NCBI GenBank assembly: GCA_044226625.1
Contig: JBGAGQ010000003.1
Span: 128,001-192,000, forward strand
DNA: 64,000 nucleotides
Reading direction: 5' to 3'
DNA from: Thermoanaerobaculia bacterium
Lineage (GTDB): Bacteria > Acidobacteriota > Thermoanaerobaculia > Multivoradales > UBA5704
Made by a program: the position numbers and the translations under genes. The notes below the pieces were generated by a model that worked only from the letters and a program-made list of their open reading frames with translations, did no database searches and was not told the DNA's origin. Of this stretch, positions 690-11,896 are shown in pieces. The stretch's first letter is position 1; each line of letters starts with the position of its first letter.

Positions 690-2690
690 ATGGACGCTCC
701 CGAATCGAAGTCCCTTCCGGAGAACGCCTATCAACCGCTCGCCCCGGGCGAGACCTACGCGCCGATGGTTCCGGCGAGCGCGGAGGTGCCGGAGGCGACG
801 CTCCGCTCGGTCGGTTGGGGTCTCGCGCTCTGCATCCTCTTCACGATCGCCTCGGCCTACTCGGGGCTCAAGGTCGGCCAGGTCATGGAGGCCTCGATCC
901 CCATCTCGATCCTGGCGATCGGCCTCGCGCGGGTCTACAAGCGGCGCTCGACCCTGCTCGAAAACGTCATCCTCTCGGGGATCGGCGGCACCTCCGGCGC
1001 GATGGTGGCCGGGGCCATCTTCACCCTCCCCGCGCTCTACATCCTGAATCTCGACCCCCATCCGGTGCAGACCACGTTCATCTGCCTCGCAGGAGGTGTC
1101 CTCGGCGTCCTGTTCCTGATCCCGCTCCGGCGGTATTTCGTGCGCGAGATGCACGGCAAGTTCCCTTACCCCGAGGCGACCGCGATCACCGAGGTCCTCG
1201 TGACCGGCGAAAAGGGGGGATCGCAGGCCGCCCTCCTCCTCCAGGCGACGGGGATCGCCGCGGTCTACGACTTCTTCATCACCACGTTCCAGATCTGGAA
1301 GGAGACGCTCGACTTCCAATTCGTCGGCATCGTCAAAACAGTCGGCGACAAAGCCCGGGCGGTCCTGCGGTTCGACGCGATCGCGTTCATCCTCGGCCTC
1401 GGCTACGTGATGGGGCTTCGCTCCTCGATGATCCTCTGCGCCGGGGGCGTGCTCTCGAACCTGGTCCTCGTGCCGCTGATCTGGATGGTCGGCCGCCACT
1501 TCCCCGACGTCGTCTATCCCGGCACCAAGGCGATCGCCGAGATGTCGGCGGGCGAGATCTTCCGTAGCTACGTCCGATTCGTCGGCGTCGGCGCGATCGC
1601 GACCGCAGGGATCATTGGCATCATCAAGTCGCTGCCGATCGTCATCGGCTCGTTCTCGATCGCGGCCAAGGCGTTCCGGAAAGGCGAGGACGCGAGCCAG
1701 GAGCGGACCGACCGCGACATCTCGGTCGGCATCATGCTCGCGGGCGTCGTGGTCTCGGCGCTGGCCGCCGGGATCTTCTTCCAGTCGCTCGGCGCTTCGT
1801 TGATCGTGGTCCTCGTCGGCCTCGGCCTGACCCTCCTCTTCTCGTTCTTCTTCGCCTCGGTCGCCGCCAATGCGATCGCGACCACGGCGCGCAACCCGGT
1901 CTCCGGCATGACGATGCTCACCATCATCGTCTCCTCGGTCGTGCTGCTCCGCTTCGGCCTCTCGGGCACCACCGGCATGTTCTTCGTGATGGCGATCGCG
2001 GGCGTCGTCTGTACCGCCCTCTCCGTCTCCGGCCAGACGATCACCGACCTGAAGACCGGCTACTGGCTCGGCTCGACCCCGGCCACGCAGCAGAAGGTGA
2101 AGTTCCTCGGCGTCTTCGTCTCGGCGATCGCGGTCGCCGCGACCATCATGCTGCTCGCCAAGGCGTTTCAGTTCGGCGAGGCGGTCCCGGGCGATCCGCG
2201 GCAGATGCTTCCCTCGCCTCAGGCCTCGATCATGAAGGCCCTGGTCGAAGGGTTCATGAGCCACCAGCCGGTCGCCTACATCCTGTTCGGCGCGGGCGCC
2301 ATGATCGCGATCGTGATGGAGATGCTCGGCGTGCCGGCGCTCACCTTCGCGCTCGGCATGTACCTGCCGCTCGAGCTAAACTCCCCCGCCCTCGTCGGCG
2401 GCTTCCTCGCCCACTTCATCGAGAGGCGCTCGCAGCGCGTCGGGGGCGAGAGGGGCCGGTCGATGCGCGAGCGGGGGGTGATCATCGCCTCCGGTTTGAT
2501 GGCGGGCGGCGCGCTCGGCGGGGTGTTCGGAGCGGCCTTCCGGCTGTTCCCCTGGTATTCGGAAGACAAGCTCCAGACTCCCTTCTACACCAACGAGGCC
2601 GTCTCGCAGACCGTCTCGGCGGTCTTCTTCATCGCGCTCTGCGTCTACGTCTGGGTGAGCGCGGTACGGGAGAAGCGGGCGGCCGGATAG
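690..2690 (+). CDS. OPT family oligopeptide transporter
   Basis: Highly hydrophobic ~666 aa; motifs YSGLKVG, YPEATA, NPVSGMT, DLKTGYWLGSTP, PQA; GGAGGA RBS at 681-686 before ATG 690. Confidence 0.92.
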   Translation: MDAPESKSLPENAYQPLAPGETYAPMVPASAEVPEATLRSVGWGLALCILFTIASAYSGLKVGQVMEASIPISILAIGLARVYKRRSTLLENVILSGIGGTSGAMVAGAIFTLPALYILNLDPHPVQTTFICLAGGVLGVLFLIPLRRYFVREMHGKFPYPEATAITEVLVTGEKGGSQAALLLQATGIAAVYDFFITTFQIWKETLDFQFVGIVKTVGDKARAVLRFDAIAFILGLGYVMGLRSSMILCAGGVLSNLVLVPLIWMVGRHFPDVVYPGTKAIAEMSAGEIFRSYVRFVGVGAIATAGIIGIIKSLPIVIGSFSIAAKAFRKGEDASQERTDRDISVGIMLAGVVVSALAAGIFFQSLGASLIVVLVGLGLTLLFSFFFASVAANAIATTARNPVSGMTMLTIIVSSVVLLRFGLSGTTGMFFVMAIAGVVCTALSVSGQTITDLKTGYWLGSTPATQQKVKFLGVFVSAIAVAATIMLLAKAFQFGEAVPGDPRQMLPSPQASIMKALVEGFMSHQPVAYILFGAGAMIAIVMEMLGVPALTFALGMYLPLELNSPALVGGFLAHFIERRSQRVGGERGRSMRERGVIIASGLMAGGALGGVFGAAFRLFPWYSEDKLQTPFYTNEAVSQTVSAVFFIALCVYVWVSAVREKRAAG

Positions 2691-2700
2691 GCGGAGGCTC

Positions 2701-2744
2701 CGTAGGACCCGCGGCGGCAGCTCCGCGCCGAAGCGGGTCCTACG
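2701..2744. terminator. GTAG-ended inverted repeat between convergent genes (REP-like or bidirectional terminator)
   Basis: CGTAGGACCCGC (2701-2712) ... GCGGGTCCTACG (2733-2744), a perfect 12-bp inverted repeat. Confidence 0.6.
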
Positions 2745-2757
2745 AGATCGATCACGT

Positions 2758-5685
2758 CTACTTGAAGCTGAACCGAACTCCGAGCCGGAGGATGCGCGCT
2801 CCCAGGACCTCCAGGACGTGGTCCGAGGTGTTGCGACCGAGCAGCGCCTGACGTTGCAGGACGGTCGCGCGGTTGAGCGCGTTGAAGCAGTCGAGGCTCC
2901 AGGTCGCCGAAAAGTCGCCGCGCCGAATCTCCTTCTGGATCCTCAAGTCGAGCACGTGGACGTCGGGGTATCGCGTCAGACGGGAGCTCGCCGGCAGATA
3001 GGTGAGACGGCTTTCGTCGAGCTCCGCGCGGGACTGCTGCACGGCGTAGCGGAGCGGATAGCCTTGGTGCCCCGTGGCCGAGGCCGCGAGGTCGAATCCC
3101 CAGAGCCGGCCAGGGGCGATCTGTACCAGCCCGGTCAAGGCGTACGACCAGCGACTGTTCAAGAAGACGTTCCCCTTCGCCCCTCCGGGAAAGTTCGAAC
3201 CGGAGAGCACCTGGCTCCCGTCGACGACGCCTCCCGTGATCGCGTCGGTCGGGTCTTCGTTCTCGGCCTCGGGGATGCGCCATCGCCAGTCCTGCACGCC
3301 GAGGTTCCCGCGCAGCATCCAGCGATGGCCGAGCCGCTTGTCGAAGGTGAGAAACGCGCCCCGGAACTCCTGCTCTCGATCGCCGTTCTCGAGCCGCGCG
3401 CCGCCGCGCGTCGAAACGCCGTCCCGCAGCGTCCAGTAAGGGGTCGTGAAGCTCTGGCCATTCGGCAGCATTCCCGAGACGACCCCTTGGAGGACGTAGT
3501 CGTCTCGCCGATGCGGTCGGCCGCGCCGATTCAGGTTCTCCGGCGAACGGGGATCCGGATCGTCGAACACCAGCAGCTCGCGCTCGAGAAGCTTCGACAG
3601 CCGCCGCCAGGTGACCCGGAGGCCGATCACCAGGTCGGGACGGAGCGCACGCTCGACGCCCAGCAACACCTCGTCGGTGATCGGCGCCTCGAGCTCCGGA
3701 TCGATCTGGTTCGACACCAGCGGTCCGAAGTTGAGGGGGTTGATCCCTCCGGTCGGCGGTCCAGCCGAATCGAGCAGCTCGTCGGGTTCGAACGTCTCCC
3801 CGCCGCCGTTGGTGGTGTAGAAGTAGAGGTACTGCGGGTTCGCGGCCGGACTGACGAAGGCCGCCGTGTCGGTCCCGAGCTGGTCGGCGTACCTCGAATA
3901 CGACGCGCGGACGAGGGTGGTGCGCTCCCTGCCGAGCGCCCAGGTGGCGCCGAGGCGCGGTACGACATTCGACCATTCGAAACCACCATCGCCGCCGGGA
4001 ACGGAGATCGCGGGAAGCAGCTCGGGAAACGCGGGATTCGCGCGCACTTCGATCGGCAGGTTGCGTCCGCCTTGCCGGTCGTAGCGGAGGCCGGCGTTGA
4101 CCGTGAAGCGGCCGAACGTCGCGGTGTCCGAGGCGAAGGCGTCGACGTACCGACCGCGATAGCGCACTTGGGCGTCGCGGGAGATCGCGGCGATCCCGCC
4201 GCAGCACTCCCAGCCGCCGCCCGGCGTCCGGCTGAGCGACGATTCGAGCGCGGTGCGGTAGCCGACGCCGAAACGCAGCTCGTGGGAGACGTCGCGCGTG
4301 TCGAGGTAGGCGCTCGCCGCGCCGCGGACCTGGCGCTGGGCGCGCTCGGCCCGGGTGAGGAAGAAGCTGTTGTGCCAGACCTGATCGTCGTCGAGGAACG
4401 GCACCTTGTCGCCCACGGCCGGGAGCAGCTGAAAGCCGCCGTTCACCCGCGAGGCGAGCACCGAGAGATGGAGACGCGAGCCGATCTGTTGGCCGTCCTC
4501 GACCTTCCAGGCGGTCGGCACGGGACCGAAGCGCGACTGGTTCCAATCGGTTTCCGGCGGCCGTTGCGGGCTCGCGCCGAATCCGTGACGCGACTTGTCG
4601 TCGTGCCAGAAGAAGAGGGTGGCCGAGTTGCCGTCCGCGAGCTTCGCGTCGAGCTTCAAGTTGCCGGCCGGTAGCTCGGTCGACTCGGAGAAATCGGCGA
4701 TCGTCCGACGCTCCACTTTCGGATCGCCGTAAGAGCCCCAGACCCAGAGGCGGTCGCGGACGAGCGGACCGCCCAGCTCGAGTCCGAGGTCGGTCAGGCG
4801 CTCGACCCGGTTGCCAGCGCGAAACGGGGCCTGCGCGTGGTTGCGGTTCCAGGGGCCCGCTTGGCCGAGGTCTTCGTCGTCGAAATCGAGCCCCGAGCGA
4901 AGCGTGGCGCCCGAGTAGTAGGCGCGCCCGCTGCCGCGCCAGACGTCCGTGCCGCGCCGGGTGACCAGATTCACCACCACGCCGCCCGAGGCGATCTCCG
5001 CGTCGTTGCCTCCGGTCGTTACCTGGATCTCCTCGAAGGCGTCGAAATCGAACTGCCCCGGAGAGCTGCCGAGCGCGGCCATGTCCGTGATCACCATGCC
5101 GTCGAGCGACCAGACCGTCTGCTCGCCCGGCGATCCGGGACCGACGAGGCGCGATTGCAGACCGGTCTCCGTGCCGCCGACGTTGATCCGATCGGTGAGC
5201 ACCCCCGGCGTCGTCCGGAGGATCGCCCACGGATCGCGCGAGGTGGGTACCGCGTCGAGCTCGGCGCGAGGCACCGACGTGCCGCTCGAGAACCGCCGCT
5301 CGTCGAGCGCCGGCGCCTCGGCCGTGACGGTCAACGTCTCCTGCTCGACGGGCGAGAGGGTCACGGAGAGATTGACGGTACGTCCGACCCGGATCTGGAG
5401 GTCGGGGACCGAGAACGGCGAGCGCCCGGGGTGAGTTACCTCCAGCCGATAGGCGCCCGGCGCGAGACCGAGAAAGCGGAAACGTCCCTCGGCGTCGGTG
5501 CCACGCGTTTCCGCTCCGCCACCGCCCGAGAGGGTCGCGACCGCACCGGCGAGCGGCGCGCCCGAGGGATCGACCACCGTGCCGTGGAGGTTGCCGTCCT
5601 GAAGTTGGGCGGCGAGCGGCGGGGCCGCCCACAGGGCGGCGGCGAAAGGCAGACAGAGTCCTAGCCGACGAAGTCGGAATCGCAT
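2758..5685 (-). CDS. TonB-dependent receptor with N-terminal carboxypeptidase-regulatory-like domain
   Basis: Signal peptide; GTVVDPSGAPLAGA repeat-domain start; plug motifs (RDPWAIL..PGV, GGVVVNLVTRRG); GLRYD; FNALN; C-terminal RLGVRFSF; AGGAGGG RBS. Confidence 0.9.
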   Translation of the reverse strand: MRFRLRRLGLCLPFAAALWAAPPLAAQLQDGNLHGTVVDPSGAPLAGAVATLSGGGGAETRGTDAEGRFRFLGLAPGAYRLEVTHPGRSPFSVPDLQIRVGRTVNLSVTLSPVEQETLTVTAEAPALDERRFSSGTSVPRAELDAVPTSRDPWAILRTTPGVLTDRINVGGTETGLQSRLVGPGSPGEQTVWSLDGMVITDMAALGSSPGQFDFDAFEEIQVTTGGNDAEIASGGVVVNLVTRRGTDVWRGSGRAYYSGATLRSGLDFDDEDLGQAGPWNRNHAQAPFRAGNRVERLTDLGLELGGPLVRDRLWVWGSYGDPKVERRTIADFSESTELPAGNLKLDAKLADGNSATLFFWHDDKSRHGFGASPQRPPETDWNQSRFGPVPTAWKVEDGQQIGSRLHLSVLASRVNGGFQLLPAVGDKVPFLDDDQVWHNSFFLTRAERAQRQVRGAASAYLDTRDVSHELRFGVGYRTALESSLSRTPGGGWECCGGIAAISRDAQVRYRGRYVDAFASDTATFGRFTVNAGLRYDRQGGRNLPIEVRANPAFPELLPAISVPGGDGGFEWSNVVPRLGATWALGRERTTLVRASYSRYADQLGTDTAAFVSPAANPQYLYFYTTNGGGETFEPDELLDSAGPPTGGINPLNFGPLVSNQIDPELEAPITDEVLLGVERALRPDLVIGLRVTWRRLSKLLERELLVFDDPDPRSPENLNRRGRPHRRDDYVLQGVVSGMLPNGQSFTTPYWTLRDGVSTRGGARLENGDREQEFRGAFLTFDKRLGHRWMLRGNLGVQDWRWRIPEAENEDPTDAITGGVVDGSQVLSGSNFPGGAKGNVFLNSRWSYALTGLVQIAPGRLWGFDLAASATGHQGYPLRYAVQQSRAELDESRLTYLPASSRLTRYPDVHVLDLRIQKEIRRGDFSATWSLDCFNALNRATVLQRQALLGRNTSDHVLEVLGARILRLGVRFSFK

Positions 5686-5691
5686 CGAACA

Positions 5692-5748
5692 GCCCTCCTG
5701 AGAGGTTGGAAGCTACGTCGGTTCGACGTTAGCCAACCGTTGGAGGGC
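5692..5748 (-). promoter_or_regulatory. Long 5'-UTR stem-loop that sequesters the Shine-Dalgarno of the TonB-dependent receptor
   Basis: Nested complementary pairs GCCCTCC/GGAGGGC, GGTTG/CAACC, GCTA/TAGC, CGTCG/CGACG around a 3-nt loop. Confidence 0.5.
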
Positions 5749-5832
5749 ATGCGATTGCTGTGACGCGAAATCGCACGAATCTGGGATCGCGGGCCGGTCC
5801 GCGAGGTCGGGGATCGAGGCCGCGTTCGGCTT

Positions 5833-6231
5833 TTAACGTCCGAACGCCTTCCAGATCGCCGCCGCTTTGAGGCCGATCACCGTCAACGCCATCACCGCGA
5901 GCACGCCGAGGTAAAGCAGCGTCAGGCGCGTGTCGCGGAGCAGGCAGCGGCTTCGCAGCAGCCCCGCGCGAAGCGCCTTGCCATAGGCCACGAGGCCGAG
6001 AATGGCGAAGAAGGCGAGCACTACGGGCGGGGAGAAGAGCCAGGCGAGCGCGGCGAGCGTCGCGTAGGTGCAGAGCCGGAACGGATCCTCGACCGCGGGG
6101 GTCGCGGAAGCGACGGGGGCGACGGGAGGTTGCGCCACGCGGAGAGCCTGCTCCTCCCGCGCTTTGCGCGCCGCGGCGAGGGCGGGCGGTTCGTTCTCGT
6201 TCGAGTTTCCCTCGGGATTGTTCGAGCTCAT
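5833..6231 (-). CDS. Small membrane protein (132 aa, ~3 TM) of the Lgt-like/radical SAM operon
   Basis: ATG overlaps the radical SAM stop (ATGA); hydrophobic C-terminal half with DPFRLCTYAT and RSRCLLRD motifs. Confidence 0.75.
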   Translation of the reverse strand: MSSNNPEGNSNENEPPALAAARKAREEQALRVAQPPVAPVASATPAVEDPFRLCTYATLAALAWLFSPPVVLAFFAILGLVAYGKALRAGLLRSRCLLRDTRLTLLYLGVLAVMALTVIGLKAAAIWKAFGR

Positions 6232-7796
6232 GGGGCCACTCCCTTCGCCATCGCGCCGACTCGCTCGGCGAGCTTGGTCCGGGCGAGAGGATCCCAGGCC
6301 TGGATCGCGCAGAACGGCACGCATTGGTGCGCCCCTTCCTGATCCGTCGCGCCGACGTGGACGCAGCACTGGATCAGTCGCTCTTCGATCATCGTGTTCA
6401 TGTCCATGAACGGCTTGATCGTGATCCGCTTGATCCGCTCTCCCACCAACCGTCGGAACGCCTCGCCGCGACCGAGGAGCGCCTCGCCGGCGAGCCGGGA
6501 GAGCGTCGAGAGCCCGAGGTCGCACGCGGTACAGACGTCGCGGAAGAGCGCGCCGATCCCCTCCTGCGCGAGCGAGCTCGATTCGGAAAACAGGCCGAGG
6601 AACGCCTGCTTCACGAGCTTCCGGAGCTCGGCCGACAGCTCCGGATCGATGATCCGGTTCGCGACCAGCCCGAGGTGGGAACGGAGCGCGTCCACGCCGA
6701 CGATCGAGGTGAGCGAGCGCCACTCCCCCGAATCGGAGCGCAGCAGATAACCGATGCTGCAGCAGTGCGGATGGCTGCATGGCAGCGCGGTGAGGTCGCG
6801 CCACGAGACCAGCCCGCCGGTCTGCGGCCCCAGGCGCGCGAGCGTGCCGGTGTGGGTGAGGCGGTCGAGCGGGTCGATCGCGGTCGAGCGGCCGCTGCCG
6901 AACTGCGGCTGGATCGAAACGCCGCCGACGAACGGCGTGTCGATCGCCACGCGGAGCACTTCGCCGATCTCGTCGTCATTGATTCCGAGCGTCGCGGTCA
7001 TGGTCAAGGTCGTGAAGACCCCCGCCTTGGACAGTCGCTCGATCGCGCGCGATTTCACCTTCCCCAGGTCGGCGCCCCGATGGTAGCGATGGGTCTCGGC
7101 CCGAAGGCCGTCGAATTGCAGATAGACCTCGATGCGCTGGCGGTGCTTTTCGAGGAACGCGACGAGCGCGTCGTCCTGCGCAATCGCGATGCCGTTGGTG
7201 TTGAGCAGGATCCGGCCGATCGGCCGGGAGGTCAGCCCCGCGAGCAGCCGGAGCAGCTCCGGGTGGAGCGTCGGCTCGCCCCCGGAGAGCATTACGACGT
7301 CGAGCCGGCCTTCCTCGCGCGCCAGCCGGACGTCGACATTCCGCAGCACCTCGTCGACCGGCACCACGCCGCGAAGCTGCGGCGAGCTCGAGGCGAAGCA
7401 GTTCGGGCAACACAGGTTGCAGGAGAGCTCGACGTCTTCGAGGAGGATGCAGGTGTGCTGCGTCTGCAGCTCCGGCAGGCCGCGAAGATAGGCCGCCGGG
7501 ATCGGATCGAAATTGCCCGGCCGGTCGGGGACGTGGCGCTTCGTCGGCGCCGTCCACTCCTCCAGCCAGCGCAGGATCTCGGCCGACTCGTCGTAAAGCG
7601 TTCGGACCAGCCCATGGTCCGGGCAGCCGCGCACCAGGTAGACGCGCCCCCCCTCTTCCTCCGCGAGATACCCCGCGAGCCGCCGGACCTCGGCGAGCGG
7701 CCGGTCGGGGCGCTCGGCGTGGCAGTGCGGGCAGAACGCCGTCACGTACCGGTGCAGGCGGTCGCCTCGAAGGGGCATGCCGGCGGATGCGCTCAA
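6228..7796 (-). CDS. Radical SAM protein, tetraether synthase (Tes/GDGT-MAS/MJ0619)-like family
   Basis: CNLCCPNC (CxxxCxxC), SGGEPT, LNTNG, YLQFDG; N-terminal CPHC...CPDHG rubredoxin-type motif; C-terminal HPHC, CCVH, PFCA. Start is TTG 7796 (TTGA overlap) or ATG 7778. Confidence 0.85.
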   Translation of the reverse strand: MSASAGMPLRGDRLHRYVTAFCPHCHAERPDRPLAEVRRLAGYLAEEEGGRVYLVRGCPDHGLVRTLYDESAEILRWLEEWTAPTKRHVPDRPGNFDPIPAAYLRGLPELQTQHTCILLEDVELSCNLCCPNCFASSSPQLRGVVPVDEVLRNVDVRLAREEGRLDVVMLSGGEPTLHPELLRLLAGLTSRPIGRILLNTNGIAIAQDDALVAFLEKHRQRIEVYLQFDGLRAETHRYHRGADLGKVKSRAIERLSKAGVFTTLTMTATLGINDDEIGEVLRVAIDTPFVGGVSIQPQFGSGRSTAIDPLDRLTHTGTLARLGPQTGGLVSWRDLTALPCSHPHCCSIGYLLRSDSGEWRSLTSIVGVDALRSHLGLVANRIIDPELSAELRKLVKQAFLGLFSESSSLAQEGIGALFRDVCTACDLGLSTLSRLAGEALLGRGEAFRRLVGERIKRITIKPFMDMNTMIEERLIQCCVHVGATDQEGAHQCVPFCAIQAWDPLARTKLAERVGAMAKGVAP

Positions 7797-8203
7797 TGGA
7801 ACCCCGAGTTCCCCATCGCGAAGATGCATACTCCCGCCGCCACGGCGACCTCGAGGGCGAGGAGCGCCACCGAAAAGAGAGCGCTGAACATCAACAGCCG
7901 GCCGGGGAAGGAGATCTTGCGGGCGATCAGGATCAACCCGAGCACGAACGCGAACGGCACGAGACCCGCGGCGAGGGCGAGGAAGGCGCTCATCGCCTGC
8001 GATTGGTTACGAAAGACGAACACCCCGACGACGATCGTGAGGTGATGCAGGAACGCGAAGAGCAGAGCCCACGGCCAGGCGCGGCGTTCGGGTAGCGCCG
8101 GAAGAATGCCGGGCGGATGCGGGGCCGGCGGGGCAACGACAGCAGGTTGCGGAGGGGCGGGCGGAATCGCCGATCCGTCGGGGGGCACGTCGCCGGTCGT
8201 CAT
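7793..8203 (-). CDS. Small membrane protein (136 aa, Pro-rich N-terminus, 3 TM, C-terminal GxC)
   Basis: ATGA overlap with the upstream Lgt-like gene; three hydrophobic segments, the last ending AAGVCIF. Confidence 0.75.
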   Translation of the reverse strand: MTTGDVPPDGSAIPPAPPQPAVVAPPAPHPPGILPALPERRAWPWALLFAFLHHLTIVVGVFVFRNQSQAMSAFLALAAGLVPFAFVLGLILIARKISFPGRLLMFSALFSVALLALEVAVAAGVCIFAMGNSGFH

Positions 8204-9060
8204 GACGTCTTCTTCTCCATTTCAGGAAATGAGATCGCTTCCGGTGCCGCGGCGGTCGGTTCGTCCCGAACCACCTCCCCTGGCGGAATCCGCCCGCGTC
8301 GACCCCCGCCTCGGCGCAGCCACCAGCCGCCGAGCAGCAGCATCGAGGGGATCAAGAACCACTGCGAGCCCGACAGGCCGAGGGCGAACGGCGGGTTCGC
8401 GCGCGTGAATTCGAGAAGGAAACGCACCGGAGCGTACAGCGCGAGGTAGAGCTTGAACAGGTCTTGCCGCCAGGCGGCCTCGCGGGCGAGCCGGACGAGC
8501 AGCGCGAACGCCGCGAGGTGGAAAACGATCTCGTAGGCGAACGACGGATGGAGCGGCCGGCCGATCCACGCCGCGGGAAATCCGGGGATCGTGGCCGCCC
8601 GCGCCGCGTCGACCGTGACGCTCCAAGGGAGATCGGCGGGGCGTCCCGGGATCTCGGTGAGCAGGCAGCCGACGCGGCCGATCGCGATGCCGAGCGCCAC
8701 GGGCGCCGCGAACAGCTCGCCGGTCGAGCGGCGCAGGCCGACGAGCCGCTTCGTCGCGAGCGCTCCGAGGTAGGCCCCAGCGAGGCCGCCGAGCACGCTC
8801 TGCCCGCCGCGCAGGGCGAGATCGGCCAACGAGTGCCCGCCTCCGTCGCCGAGGTAGCGCCAGACGACCCCGAGCTTCGCGAACAGCACGCCGCCGATCA
8901 AGGCGCCGCAGAGGACCGCGAGGTGCTCGTCGTCGAACCGGCCCGTCCGACGCGCGGCGCGCAGGTAGAGGACCGTCGCGACGATCACGCCGAAGAGCAC
9001 GAACGCGCCGTGCCGAGAGACGCCGAGGCCGTCGAGCCCGACGGATGCGGAAGGGAGCAT
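8200..9060 (-). CDS. Prolipoprotein diacylglyceryl transferase (Lgt) family protein, divergent paralog
   Basis: GGQSVLGGLAG, GIAIGRVGC, HPSFAYE, YAPVRFLLEFTR motifs; multi-TM; start ATG 9060. Confidence 0.85.
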   Translation of the reverse strand: MLPSASVGLDGLGVSRHGAFVLFGVIVATVLYLRAARRTGRFDDEHLAVLCGALIGGVLFAKLGVVWRYLGDGGGHSLADLALRGGQSVLGGLAGAYLGALATKRLVGLRRSTGELFAAPVALGIAIGRVGCLLTEIPGRPADLPWSVTVDAARAATIPGFPAAWIGRPLHPSFAYEIVFHLAAFALLVRLAREAAWRQDLFKLYLALYAPVRFLLEFTRANPPFALGLSGSQWFLIPSMLLLGGWWLRRGGGRRGRIPPGEVVRDEPTAAAPEAISFPEMEKKTS

Positions 9061-9188
9061 GTTCGGTGGAGTGTACGCCGACCGCCGTGCCGCCGGCCCA
9101 AGAGGAATGCCGGGCACGCTTGGACTCCGGATCCGGCCAACTCGTAGAAAGCGGTAGAGCTTCGCCTTTCCAGAAGGAGATCCTTCTC

Positions 9189-10034
9189 ATGCCCGAGCGC
9201 GTTCGCCTCCTCGCGCTTTCGACACGCGCCACCATCTCGCTGCTGTTGGTCGGCGCGTTCCTCGTCGTGGTCGGATTCTTCGACGAATTTCTCGGCTGGG
9301 ACATCTTCGCCCCGCCGCTCGAGAGGGCGCTCACCGGAGTCTTCGCCTCCTGCGTGGCGCTGGGCGCCTTCGGCCTCGCGATCAGCCTGGCGGTGGGAAT
9401 CCGCGATGCCGTGGCGGCCGTCGAGCGGCTCGGTCCTCCGAGGAGCCCGGCAGAGCAGAGTCCGCCGCTCTCCCGCAAGAGCGCGTGGATCTGGCTCGGC
9501 TCGATCTTCGCGCTCTTCGTCGTCACGGTGCTCGCGTTCAACGGCGCCAACGAGCGCCTGCTCGCAGGGCGGCAGCGCATGTTCAAGAAGCTCGCGCACC
9601 GCCAGATGTCGACGCTCGCCCCCCGCTGGGCGGCGGAGCTCTCCGCCGTGCCGCGCCCCTGCCCGACCTGCGTGCCCGCGGGTCTCAAGGAACTGGTGCG
9701 GGCCTTCGACGCCCAGTCGTTCTGCCGTTCGGTCGACGTCTTCCTTCCCGACCCGGACGACGCGGACGTCCTGTGGCGTTACGTCCCCGACCGGAACGGG
9801 CATCCCGAGCTCGAACGCATCCTGGTCTCCCGGGATCAGGAGCGTGCGATCTCCCAGGCGCTCCGCGGCCAACCGGCCTGGCTGGACCAGATGGACGGCG
9901 ACGTGAATTGGATCTCCTATCGGGTCGTTAGGGGACCCGGCGGACGAGGCCTCGGAGTGGTCGAAATCTTCGGCAATTCCGACGAAACCTACGGCGACTA
10001 CTTGAGCCTCGCCGCCGAGCCCGCGCAGAACTGA
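9189..10034 (+). CDS. Hypothetical membrane protein (3 TM plus soluble C-terminal domain)
   Basis: AAGGAGA RBS before ATG 9189; three hydrophobic segments; CPTC motif. Confidence 0.65.
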   Translation: MPERVRLLALSTRATISLLLVGAFLVVVGFFDEFLGWDIFAPPLERALTGVFASCVALGAFGLAISLAVGIRDAVAAVERLGPPRSPAEQSPPLSRKSAWIWLGSIFALFVVTVLAFNGANERLLAGRQRMFKKLAHRQMSTLAPRWAAELSAVPRPCPTCVPAGLKELVRAFDAQSFCRSVDVFLPDPDDADVLWRYVPDRNGHPELERILVSRDQERAISQALRGQPAWLDQMDGDVNWISYRVVRGPGGRGLGVVEIFGNSDETYGDYLSLAAEPAQN

Positions 10035-10078: not shown

Positions 10079-11461
10079 ATGCACCACGGCTCGGCCTCTC
10101 TCCCCCGCCTCGCGGCGCTCGTCGCCCTTCTTGCGCTCGCCTCCCCGCTGCTCGCTCACGAGGAGACCGGCGTCTCGCCCCTCCAATCCGGCCCGATGGT
10201 CGGCCTGTCCGACGTGGGCGAGGTGGAGCTCTGGCTGCAGACGAAACAGCCGGCGCGCGCGCAGCTCCGCTTCTGGCTCGCGGGCGCGGAGGTCTCGTCG
10301 CGGCTCTCGCGGGAGATCGCGACCACCGAGGAGGGGGATCGGATCGCGCGGTTTCGCCTCGTGAACCTGGTGCCGGGGGTGAAATACGAATACGAGGTCT
10401 ACGTCGACGGGCGGCGGGTCGGCCTGCCCTACGCCACCGCGTTCAAGACGCAGGAGATCTGGCGGTGGCGCACGCCCGCGCCCGACGTGCGCGCGGCGTT
10501 CGGCTCGTGCGCCTACATCAACGATCCTTCGGCGGACCGGGAGGGCGAACCGTACGGCGGCGGGTACGAGATCTTCAACGCGATCCTCGCGCAAAAACCC
10601 GACCTGATGCTCTGGCTGGGCGACGACATCTATTACCGGGAATCCGACGTCGGGACCGAAGAGGGGATGCGCCGTCGTTGGGCGCGCGACCGCTCGATCC
10701 CGGAGCTCCAGCCGCTGTTCGGCTCGGTGCATCAATACGCGATCTGGGACGACCACGATTTCGGCCCGAACGACTCGGATCGCTCGTTCGCCGGTCGCGA
10801 GACTTCCCTGCGCGTGTTTCGCGACTATTGGGCGAACCCGCAATACGGCACCGCCGAGCTCCCCGGCGTGTTCGGTCGGTTCTCCTGGGGCGACGTCGAG
10901 TTCTTCCTGCTCGACGACCGCTTCTACCGGACCCCGGACGAGTTCCCCGACGACGCCTCGAAACGGATGTTCGGCCGCGAGCAGTTGCGCTGGCTCGAAG
11001 AGGCGCTGGTCTCCTCCGACGCGACGTTCAAGGTCGTCGCCTCGGGCAATCAGATGTGGAATCCCCTCGCCAACTACGAAGCGCTCGGCCGCTATCCCGC
11101 CGAGCAGCGCGAGCTGCGCGACTTCTTGGTGAAGGCGAAGATCCGCGGCCTCGTCTTCCTCACCGGCGACCGCCATACGTCGGAGCTGCTCAAGGTCGAC
11201 GTCCCCGGCCTCTATCCGTTCTACGAGTTCACCTCGAGTCCGCTCACCTCGGGCATGGCCAGCTCGTTCGAAAAAGAGGCGAACAACCCCGCCCGCGTCG
11301 CCGGGACCTGGGTCACCGACCGTCGCAGCTTCGGGCTGCTCGAGGTCACCGGGCCGCCGGAAGATCGTGTGCTGACGCTCCGAGCGATCGATGCCAAGGG
11401 CACCGAGCTCTGGAAGCACGAGATCCACGCGCGCGAGCTCGAACCGCCCGCAAAGAAATAG
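10079..11461 (+). CDS. phoD: Alkaline phosphatase D family protein
   Basis: Signal peptide; FGSC, WLGDDIY, IWDDHD, LDDRFYR, LTGDRH, EFTSSP motifs. Confidence 0.9.
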   Translation: MHHGSASLPRLAALVALLALASPLLAHEETGVSPLQSGPMVGLSDVGEVELWLQTKQPARAQLRFWLAGAEVSSRLSREIATTEEGDRIARFRLVNLVPGVKYEYEVYVDGRRVGLPYATAFKTQEIWRWRTPAPDVRAAFGSCAYINDPSADREGEPYGGGYEIFNAILAQKPDLMLWLGDDIYYRESDVGTEEGMRRRWARDRSIPELQPLFGSVHQYAIWDDHDFGPNDSDRSFAGRETSLRVFRDYWANPQYGTAELPGVFGRFSWGDVEFFLLDDRFYRTPDEFPDDASKRMFGREQLRWLEEALVSSDATFKVVASGNQMWNPLANYEALGRYPAEQRELRDFLVKAKIRGLVFLTGDRHTSELLKVDVPGLYPFYEFTSSPLTSGMASSFEKEANNPARVAGTWVTDRRSFGLLEVTGPPEDRVLTLRAIDAKGTELWKHEIHARELEPPAKK

Positions 11462-11563: not shown

Positions 11564-11896
11564 TCAGACGAGGTCTTTGACCGTCTTGCTCGAGCCGTTC
11601 GACTTGACCGAGGCCATGCCGTTCTCGCAAGCCCCGGACGACGAATACAGCTCGCTCGTGCCGATTACCTGGTGGTTGCCCGCCCGAAGATTGAAAAACG
11701 GCTTGCCGTTCGACGACGTCTTCTGCACGTACCGCTTGTCGTTGCCGCAGTTCTTCTGCACCGACGCGATCCCCTTGACCGCCGAGGAGCGCGACCGATA
11801 GAGCTCGCTGGTGAGGATGACCTCTCCGTTGCCCGCCTTCAGAACGAAACGAAACTGCCCGTCGCTGCTCTTCTTCAGCTCGAACCAACCGGACAT
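11564..11896 (-). CDS. yegP: YegP family protein (tandem DUF1508)
   Basis: Two repeats F.F.L.A.N..VI.TSE.Y.S...C..G..SV..N; GAGGAG RBS. Confidence 0.9.
   Translation of the reverse strand: MSGWFELKKSSDGQFRFVLKAGNGEVILTSELYRSRSSAVKGIASVQKNCGNDKRYVQKTSSNGKPFFNLRAGNHQVIGTSELYSSSGACENGMASVKSNGSSKTVKDLV

Follow-up and report, generated by a model that had tools for sequence, protein, structure and literature searches.

The DNA analysed here is a stretch of 64,000 nucleotides (hereafter the window) from contig JBGAGQ010000003.1 of a Thermoanaerobaculia bacterium, and within it we focus on four genes which together appear to form a membrane-associated cassette. These encode a paralogue of prolipoprotein diacylglyceryl transferase (Lgt), termed LgtL, a small membrane protein, mp136, an enzyme of the radical S-adenosylmethionine (SAM) type related to the lipid synthase Tes/GDGT-MAS, and a second small membrane protein, mp132 (Table 1). 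An earlier reading of the letters alone, referred to below as the original prediction, had described four genes joined by ATGA/TTGA overlaps behind one promoter. Reading of the open reading frames (ORFs) of the window confirms four head-to-tail minus-strand ORFs between 9117 and 5833. Two of the overlaps also stand, both ATGA: that of the LgtL stop with the mp136 ATG (8203-8200) and that of the radical SAM stop with the mp132 ATG (6231-6228). The TTGA overlap between mp136 and the radical SAM gene, however, holds only if TTG 7796 is the start, while the gene model P0001 (516 aa) begins at ATG 7778, 15 nt past the mp136 stop, and homologues from related loci align from the residue encoded there; this third overlap is thus confirmed only in part. 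For LgtL, the start at ATG 9060 agrees with its homologues, the longest ORF reaching GTG 9117. The single promoter did not hold up: a scan for the sigma-70 consensus over 5600-9400 returned no sites, so that co-transcription of the four genes is deduced from the gene overlaps and a single promoter is assumed. A terminator scan gave a single terminator-like match, within the LgtL gene, which is below the 2.1 that shuffled sequences would yield.

Table 1 Features of the four-gene cassette and its upstream flank (window coordinates)
Feature	Coordinates	Strand	Remarks
LgtL, prolipoprotein diacylglyceryl transferase paralogue	8200..9060	-	286 aa from ATG 9060; ORF extendable to GTG 9117
mp136, small membrane protein of the GxC-tail family	7793..8203	-	136 aa; no Pfam or NCBIfam family
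Tes/GDGT-MAS-like radical SAM enzyme, clade A	6228..7778	-	516 aa from ATG 7778; alternative starts TTG 7796, ATG 7829
mp132, small membrane protein	5833..6231	-	132 aa; no Pfam or NCBIfam family
Intergenic region separating the operon from a divergent membrane-protein gene of the plus strand	9061..9188		expected promoter place; no sigma-70-like match

LgtL matches the Pfam family LGT (PF01790) over residues 31-261 with 101.2 bits against a cut-off of 24.9, and is thus the Lgt-like transferase that had been predicted. It lies under the cut-offs of both Lgt equivalog models of NCBIfam (TIGR00544, 49.9 versus 118.9; NF000778, 47 versus 334). The source genome (6.6 Mb, 133 contigs) was searched for extra copies of the operon genes. 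It has a single copy each of the radical SAM enzyme, mp136 and mp132, but a profile search of the contigs found a second Lgt on contig C6, scoring 160 bits versus 101.6 for LgtL. LgtL is therefore a paralogue and not the housekeeping copy, to which it is 29% identical (alignment A1). A profile built from 22 LgtL family members and the genome's own Lgt (23 sequences) aligns over the full length of Escherichia coli Lgt (5AZB, chain residues 14-290, E 9e-22). Here, the columns of the GR.G, HPS..YE and Y...R...E..R motifs are shared: the invariant R129, E177, R213, E217 and R220 of LgtL and its near-invariant E136, Y209 and H171-P172-S173 all face identical residues in the E. coli protein, and R129, E136, Y209, R213, E217 and R220 are invariant or at least 90% conserved in the 23 sequences. 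We take these six to correspond to E. coli R143, E151, Y235, R239, E243 and R246, the first five of which are the catalytic Arg, Glu and Tyr residues of that enzyme. In E. coli Lgt, R143 and R239 are essential.

The radical SAM enzyme carries the Pfam domains Radical_SAM (PF04055) and the zinc ribbon of the HMPTM/GDGT-MAS family (PF23545), and the only solved structure it matches is GDGT-MAS 7TOL (E 1.4e-29, residues 20-338 and 452-492). Its best-scoring NCBIfam model is TrsS (NF045646), at 183.5 bits far under the cut-off of 490; the Tes model (NF045702) gives 136.9 bits against a cut-off of 450, where Tes equivalogs from Acidobacteriota score 550-580 bits. In alignment A4, comprising 62 full-length representatives and the window's protein (63 rows), 62/63 rows match the TrsS model, the top-scoring one for them (best E 3.9e-136), and 61/63 the Tes model (best E 1.6e-119), best values which suggest that no representative in it reaches either cut-off. 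The enzyme belongs to the wider Tes/GDGT-MAS-like superfamily, outside the Tes family proper; of the "Tes-like radical SAM" originally predicted, the superfamily assignment stands and membership of the Tes clade does not. TrsS itself was dropped as a functional lead: the literature, as far as accessible, gave only its listing as an uncharacterised selenoprotein family (table in PMC13188914), with no mention in a further preprint, and a match to an uncharacterised family gives no function. One Tes-like match elsewhere, G290:C176:784-1710, contains one in-frame TGA and could be a selenoprotein form of the kind described for TrsS. A further known enzyme, Mss of Thermotoga and Thermoanaerobacter, is a bacterial radical SAM enzyme for which the joining of fatty-acid tails has been proposed (PMC13159169, PMC13459092, accessible parts) and is, according to its authors, only remotely related to Tes (PMC13159169). 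In the accessible parts, its published description mentions no Lgt partner.

The close relatives of the enzyme, hereafter clade A, were sampled as the best 80 of 306 relatives with one genome per species (L005-L084), giving 81 loci with the window. Fully or almost fully conserved in these 81 sequences are C16, C19, C52 and H55 of the zinc ribbon, C110, the CX3CX2C radical SAM motif (C120, C124, C127) and C334, C339, C340, C416, C419, C471, C472, H474, C486 and C490, so that nine invariant cysteines lie in the C-terminal half. In Tes 7TOL, according to the accessible part of a review, there is a rubredoxin-like iron site held by three Cys and one His, an N-domain [4Fe-4S] cluster again held by three Cys and one His, the radical SAM cluster, and a C-domain cluster whose ligands are three Cys and one Met; it is on a sulfur of this last cluster that the first lipid radical is kept, and the lipid tail ends are joined via a cluster-bound intermediate (PMC13459092). 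The domain order of the window's enzyme is the same, i.e. a rubredoxin-like zinc ribbon, a radical SAM core and a C-terminal cluster domain. C16, C19, C52 and H55 match the rubredoxin-like site, and the Cys-rich C-terminal part shares an FMD...CC.H...PFC stretch. Two differences stand out. Firstly, the motif CxxDCGxCxxH, which judging by its place is probably the ligand set of the N-domain cluster, is found in 0/81 clade A sequences versus 77/78 sequences of a second clade (clade B) introduced below. Secondly, clade A has an extra invariant CxxC (C416, C419).

The cassette is better conserved than the single window could show. An LgtL gene was found by hidden Markov model (HMM) search over all ORFs on the same strand and beside the radical SAM gene in 72/81 loci, mp132 directly follows the radical SAM gene in 71/81, and the family of small proteins that includes mp136 is present in 74/81 (iterated HMM). 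Since the gene set recurs by the radical SAM gene in 80 other loci, it is more than a product of chance. Among the nine loci without a scored LgtL, in six the contig extends less than 750 nt upstream, in L015 a partial LgtL lies downstream where the contig ends and was counted as a miss, and L076 and L084 have full flanks and no LgtL; of the ten without mp132, four are at contig ends and six have full flanks. The flanks of the related loci hold no other conserved genes. Clade A loci bear six phylum labels: Acidobacteriota, Chloroflexota, Gemmatimonadota, Rhodothermota (Rhodothermales), Bacillota (Clostridia) and Actinomycetota. Their radical SAM proteins are 62-89% identical (80 loci). Most carriers found are Actinomycetota and Chloroflexota, and the cultured ones are Knoellia, Marmoricola, Nocardioides, Pedococcus, Aldersonia and four Mycobacterium species. 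Homologues of the radical SAM enzyme number thousands; the best 120 are 68-100% identical, with Thermoanaerobaculia/Acidobacteriota, Oscillochloris/Chloroflexales, Herpetosiphonaceae and Gemmatimonadetes among their named sources. Within 301 sampled Acidobacteriota genomes, only two carry mp132 and a clade A radical SAM gene, namely the window's own genome and one of the same genus. The proposed link to the membrane-spanning lipids of Acidobacteria is thus weak. That identity stays high from phylum to phylum while the occurrence is patchy suggests horizontal spread, and we infer that the cassette is a self-contained, horizontally mobile membrane module with LgtL and the Tes-like radical SAM enzyme at its core.

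In nine Nocardioidaceae-type loci (L054, L057, L061, L064, L069, L070, L077, L079 and L083) the cassette follows cdsA (PF01148), itself mostly preceded by pyrH and frr, and in most of them an rlmN-like gene comes after the cassette. There, the cassette looks inserted into a housekeeping array, beside a phospholipid gene.

We then looked beyond clade A. An exhaustive search of 1.84 billion protein representatives returned 3,889 relatives of the radical SAM enzyme at E ≤ 1e-3. Clade A itself is represented there by one sequence, P0121 (63% identity), with P0122 (46%) and P0126 (41%) as sisters; all other full-length radical SAM hits are at most 38% identical. Ten representatives were scanned with Pfam, and two of them, P0215 (733 aa) and P0216 (671 aa), are natural fusions of an LGT domain, the zinc ribbon and Radical_SAM. 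Three sequences, each from a different contig, make up the P0215 cluster. A structural model of P0215 (predicted local distance difference test, pLDDT, 83.4) matches 7TOL (E 2e-32, template modelling score 0.76 by target) and, with the 5AZB fold in its Lgt part, E. coli Lgt (E 8e-9); with a predicted template modelling score (pTM) of 0.61 and a disordered linker, the mutual placement of the domains cannot be read from it. Starting from these fusion proteins, a second radical SAM clade, clade B, was identified, about 35% identical to the window's enzyme and likewise with Lgt-like neighbours. In a sample of the best 80 of 529 metagenome relatives (L088-L167), an Lgt-like ORF is present in 78/80 and a radical SAM ORF in 78/80, adjacent and separate, none fused, while mp132 is found in 0/80. 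As the search patterns came from the Lgt domain, this sample was selected for Lgt. A check blind to Lgt was therefore made on the 28 best Tes-like loci of the 301 Acidobacteriota genomes with flanks of 1.5 kb: an Lgt-like gene lies upstream in 9/28, and all nine fall within clade B.

A maximum-likelihood tree of 73 rows was computed from 17/81 clade A sequences, 12/78 clade B sequences, 25/28 acidobacterial loci, 17 representatives and the radical SAM parts of both fusions; this was a quick IQ-TREE search with support from the Shimodaira-Hasegawa-like approximate likelihood ratio test (SH-aLRT) only and no bootstraps, and deep branches are weak. Clade A has a support of 100, with P0122 and P0126 as sisters. 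Clade B, also at 100, holds P0215 and all nine Lgt-adjacent acidobacterial loci. Five acidobacterial Tes equivalogs form a third clade (support 100), apart from the window's enzyme, and none of the five (0/5) has an Lgt-like neighbour within 1.5 kb, whereas the window-type enzyme is accompanied by an Lgt paralogue. Clades A and B are joined by a branch with a support of 36, too weak to decide whether the Lgt association arose once. Three loci with several radical SAM ORFs each (L181, L190 and L194) were left out of the tree. Two of these, L181 and L190, from the Acidobacteriota genomes G045 and G097, carry a tandem pair of full Tes-like radical SAM genes with a third, shorter radical SAM ORF behind it, and show no Lgt-like gene within 1.5 kb.

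These results bear on whether the two enzymes merely happen to be neighbours, i.e. whether a housekeeping lgt lies by chance beside an unrelated radical SAM gene of the type annotated as 7,8-dihydro-6-hydroxymethylpterin dimethyltransferase. Some homologue names do carry the pterin methyltransferase label, and PF01790 is the ordinary Lgt family. That label, however, presumably stems from an earlier assignment of the archaeal GDGT-MAS protein, and the solved relative with the same zinc ribbon was deposited as the lipid synthase GDGT-MAS. With a better Lgt encoded elsewhere in the genome, LgtL under every Lgt equivalog cut-off, the pairing kept over six phylum labels and the two domains fused in P0215 and P0216, chance adjacency is contradicted and, in our view, scarcely credible. 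The co-occurrence of the Lgt-like and radical SAM genes, on which the original prediction depended, is thus borne out in clade A and extends to clade B and the fusions.

What, then, might LgtL modify? mp136 has a Pro-rich N-terminus, three hydrophobic segments and a cysteine, Cys126, in a G-x-C motif 10 residues from the C-terminus. By tblastn, mp136 proper is found in only 4/80 related loci, but it belongs to a wider family, which we call GxC-tail, with a variable N-terminus, Pro-rich or forming a short helical domain, then three hydrophobic segments and a conserved end consisting of [K/R]..R..G.G.L.G, about 10 residues and G-x-C. Counted over the best hits of all 74 loci, without bias, a Cys lies within the last 25 residues in 66/74 and G-x-C is present in 64/74; four of the remaining eight have the Cys motif followed by one further helix. 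The gene lies between LgtL and the radical SAM gene in Acidobacteriota, after mp132 in Actinomycetota and upstream of LgtL in Chloroflexota. Several loci have more than one copy: three each in L070 and L083, and six in L037. In L037, a Chloroflexia metagenome-assembled genome, the six paralogues stand in tandem at 2120-5877 between the Lgt-like gene (1197-1883) and the radical SAM gene; the cysteine is missing from two of them, and in several the N-terminal helical domain is duplicated. An ORF of L045 (4857-5987) that reads as a fusion of LgtL with a GxC-tail protein was not used, as the stretch past the last Lgt motif reads like an out-of-frame LgtL C-terminus and a frameshift in the assembly is probable.

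The tail was characterised in alignment A3 (63 rows), whose rows were pre-selected for a Cys in the tail, which in part accounts for the invariance of that Cys. Gly is found at position -2 in 62/63 rows, with A, I, V or L at -1. The distance from the last Lys/Arg to the Cys is 16-26 residues (median 20), and 4-18 residues (median 10), mostly hydrophobic and not conserved, follow the Cys. There is a mean of 2.6 Lys/Arg just ahead of the hydrophobic stretch versus 0.14 after the Cys. From the positive-inside rule, the last helix is predicted to run from inside to outside, with the Cys near its outer end. Lgt acts at the outer face of the membrane. The GxC tail therefore bears comparison with a lipoprotein signal peptide, in which a lipobox (consensus L-[AS]-[GA]-C) ends in the modified Cys: in both, a positive stretch is followed by some 20 hydrophobic residues, and small residues precede an invariant Cys. 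It differs in being at the C-terminal end of a three-helix protein, in having Gly fixed at -2 and a hydrophobic residue at -1, and in the few, mostly hydrophobic residues after the Cys. It thus resembles, as far as sequence can tell, an internal, C-terminal lipoprotein signal peptide with a lipobox-like Cys, and lipidation of mp136 is plausible. LgtL may be a working diacylglyceryl transferase with the GxC cysteine as acceptor; in that case its presumed acceptor would be an internal C-terminal helix of a dedicated polytopic protein and not, as for Lgt, an N-terminal signal peptide. A complex prediction of LgtL 1-265 with mp136 36-136 scored 0.18, against a mark of 0.32, and counts neither for nor against binding.

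mp132, the second of the two Cys-bearing membrane proteins that had been predicted, also has hydrophobic helices and conserved cysteines, C54 and C96, as mp136 has C126. Its nearest Atlas clusters are all labelled "hypothetical protein". In 63 sequences (alignment A2), D49, P50, C54, T58, W64, Y83, G90, C96 and L108 are invariant. The model of mp132 has helices at 16-33, 50-66, 68-88 and 101-131 and a basic loop holding C96. No longer, fused forms of mp132 were found at E ≤ 1e-5, which is weak evidence. It may be speculated that mp132 makes up for the N-domain cluster which the radical SAM enzyme has lost: the CxxDCGxCxxH motif is missing in 81/81 clade A sequences, and mp132 is absent from clade B loci. 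Against this idea, about 26/63 representatives also lack the motif, and the six clade A loci mentioned above lack mp132 despite full flanks.

Small, fast-evolving and sometimes multi-copy genes beside a radical SAM gene are also what one would see in the maturation of a ribosomally synthesised and post-translationally modified peptide (RiPP). Here, the radical SAM enzyme would modify one or both small membrane proteins, e.g. by a thioether or C-C cross-link at a Cys, and LgtL would add a lipid anchor, leaving the lipid tails untouched. The invariant cysteines of both small proteins fit such a scheme, the nine in the C-terminal half of the enzyme are enough for auxiliary clusters as in peptide-modifying enzymes, and Foldseek, run on the P0215 model, finds SkfB and SuiB after 7TOL. 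These come at about 1e-7, however, versus 2e-32 for 7TOL, and the nearest relatives by sequence, HMM and fold are lipid enzymes. Moreover, the GxC Cys is predicted to lie in the outer leaflet, beyond the reach of a cytoplasmic enzyme, and the lack of conservation past it speaks against a modified peptide. We consider this explanation quite improbable.

We tentatively favour, at somewhat less than an even chance, a dedicated module for protein lipidation and lipid-tail remodelling, in which LgtL lipidates the GxC-tail Cys and the radical SAM enzyme alters the tail ends of the same lipid. LgtL would take diacylglyceryl from phosphatidylglycerol and move it to the thiol of the invariant GxC Cys of mp136, at the outer-leaflet end of its last helix. 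The acceptor module would consist of two to three Lys/Arg, about 20 hydrophobic residues and then [A/G]-G-x-C, in the manner of an internal lipoprotein signal peptide. The radical SAM enzyme, cytoplasmic and possibly docked on mp132, would perform Tes-type radical chemistry on the alkyl chain ends of the same lipid pool, before or after transfer. Such chemistry could be C-C coupling or macrocyclisation, with either the donor phosphatidylglycerol or the diacylglyceryl already attached as its target; cross-linking of lipid tails is suggested here by analogy with Tes. The product would be a protein-bound, tail-modified lipid. What leads us to this reading is the conservation of LgtL, mp132 and the GxC-tail protein, the pairing and occasional fusion of the two enzymes, the retained LgtL residues, the lipobox-like acceptor and the relatedness to GDGT-MAS. 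The presence of up to six GxC-tail copies per locus was also counted in its favour, as substrates are often multi-copy.

Several observations weigh against it. The LgtL residue aligned with His103 of E. coli Lgt (H-G-G-L motif) is Leu. The missing CxxDCGxCxxH motif, together with a score far under the Tes cut-off, means that the chemistry of clade A may differ from that of Tes. Seven of the 81 clade A loci have no GxC-tail gene, about four of them (L022, L026, L035 and L036) with several kb of flank, and in clade B it is present in only 22/80 loci by HMM or 13/78 by a motif heuristic. The GxC-tail protein is thus not an obligatory acceptor of every Lgt-radical SAM pair, and as a universal partner it was rejected for clade B. 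The six full-flank loci without mp132 are those of the four Mycobacterium species, Aldersonia and Nocardioides sp. MH1, and the mp132 model is itself ambiguous (pTM 0.39): residues 50-88 form either a hairpin or one kinked helix, so that C54 and C96 may lie on the same side of the membrane or on opposite ones. The link between the small-protein cysteines and LgtL is drawn from sequence, and the predicted topologies follow from the positive-inside rule. Finally, with the acceptor Cys in the outer leaflet and the radical SAM enzyme in the cytoplasm, direct action on the attached lipid needs an extra step; the enzyme might instead act on the donor lipid before transfer.

The main rival dispenses with the protein anchor. 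LgtL and the radical SAM enzyme would remodel an ordinary phospholipid, for example phosphatidylglycerol macrocyclised or tail-coupled into a membrane-spanning lipid, making the pair a bacterial counterpart of GDGT-MAS; LgtL would be a membrane-embedded lipid-binding or head-group-transfer subunit, and the small proteins structural or regulatory. The Lgt-radical SAM pair is the only universal part of the system, given the clade B counts for GxC-tail and mp132, and the domain fusion suggests that both domains handle one lipid molecule. But LgtL retains transferase residues, beyond what a mere lipid-binding fold would need, the cysteines of the dedicated small proteins stay invariant across six phylum labels, and the clade A cassette is all but missing from the sampled Acidobacteriota. 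To our knowledge, Knoellia, Marmoricola, Nocardioides and Mycobacterium have not been reported to make membrane-spanning lipids, a point on which no search was made and which we count against this rival. On its side, the only characterised radical SAM relatives (7TOL match) act on free lipids, as far as the accessible text of PMC13459092 goes. Likewise, the accessible part of a study by Sahonero-Canavesi et al. reports Tes homologues in only 3/14 Acidobacteria producing iso-diabolic acid, and no mss, so that a synthase is missing in these organisms (PMC13159169). Altogether, we regard a pathway acting on free lipids as possible, if doubtful.

Bolder forms of both readings can be put as one either/or statement. 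Either a lipid is first anchored covalently on the small protein via the internal, C-terminal lipobox-like Cys, and radical coupling of its tails then yields a macrocyclic or membrane-spanning lipid bound to protein; or it is the Lgt-radical SAM pairs that make membrane-spanning lipids (iso-diabolic acid or precursors of branched tetraethers) in bacteria, as the oxygen-tolerant synthases so far missing, with the Lgt-like domain delivering phosphatidylglycerol. This statement in its full form we judge unlikely.

The module appears to be undescribed, a new combination of known kinds of enzyme. Literature searches for diacylglyceryl transferase, radical SAM and tetraether together found nothing. 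Papers pairing prolipoprotein diacylglyceryl transferase with radical SAM were unrelated by title and abstract, and the titles and abstracts of work from 2023 on with heterologous expression of Tes or on branched glycerol dialkyl glycerol tetraethers gave no Lgt partner. NCBIfam, Pfam and PADLOC have no model for the LgtL subfamily, mp132 or the GxC tail. Thus, no published description was found, although sequences of clades A or B may already figure in the supplementary tree of PMC8941075 and in table S21 of PMC13159169. The earlier interpretation therefore stands in part: the co-occurrence and the absence of a characterised pathway with this combination held, whereas membership of Tes did not, and the link to acidobacterial lipids is weak.

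Lgt has so far been seen as the single-purpose first enzyme of lipoprotein maturation, and Tes-like enzymes as stand-alone lipid synthases. Their conserved, sometimes fused pairing points to a step in membrane biochemistry with no described counterpart, which could either make a covalent conjugate of protein and lipid of a new kind or lead to tail-linked bacterial lipids by a new route. Should a protein-anchored, radical-coupled lipid prove to be the product, the Lgt-associated Tes-like clades would define a new kind of lipid biology. There is also a practical consequence. As far as accessible, the work of Zeng et al. counts 456 bacterial Tes homologues and proposes a role for them in branched tetraether synthesis (PMC8941075), and such homologues have been used to infer the producers of branched tetraether biomarkers (PMC8941075; bioRxiv 10.1101/2022.04.07.487437). 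As at least two large clades of them stand apart from Tes equivalogs and have other partners, bacterial Tes homologues may be mislabelled when homology is the sole criterion. Since cultured, tractable carriers exist (Knoellia, Marmoricola, Nocardioides), the function can be tested directly.

Around the cassette, none of the neighbouring genes looked at is conserved at related loci. The divergent plus-strand membrane protein (9189-10031) has no Pfam family. Beyond it, at 10079-11461 (plus strand), lies a PhoD-like phosphatase, and the neighbour on the other side of the operon (2758-5685, minus strand) encodes an outer membrane protein that resembles TonB-dependent receptors and has a CarboxypepD_reg domain. 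PADLOC anti-phage models gave no match for three of the four operon proteins and, for the radical SAM enzyme, only a weak generic viperin match of 25 bits. Further along, at 11564-11896 on the minus strand, the window encodes a 110-aa protein with two DUF1508 repeats (E 6e-42), with a local GC content of 0.64 versus about 0.69 around it.

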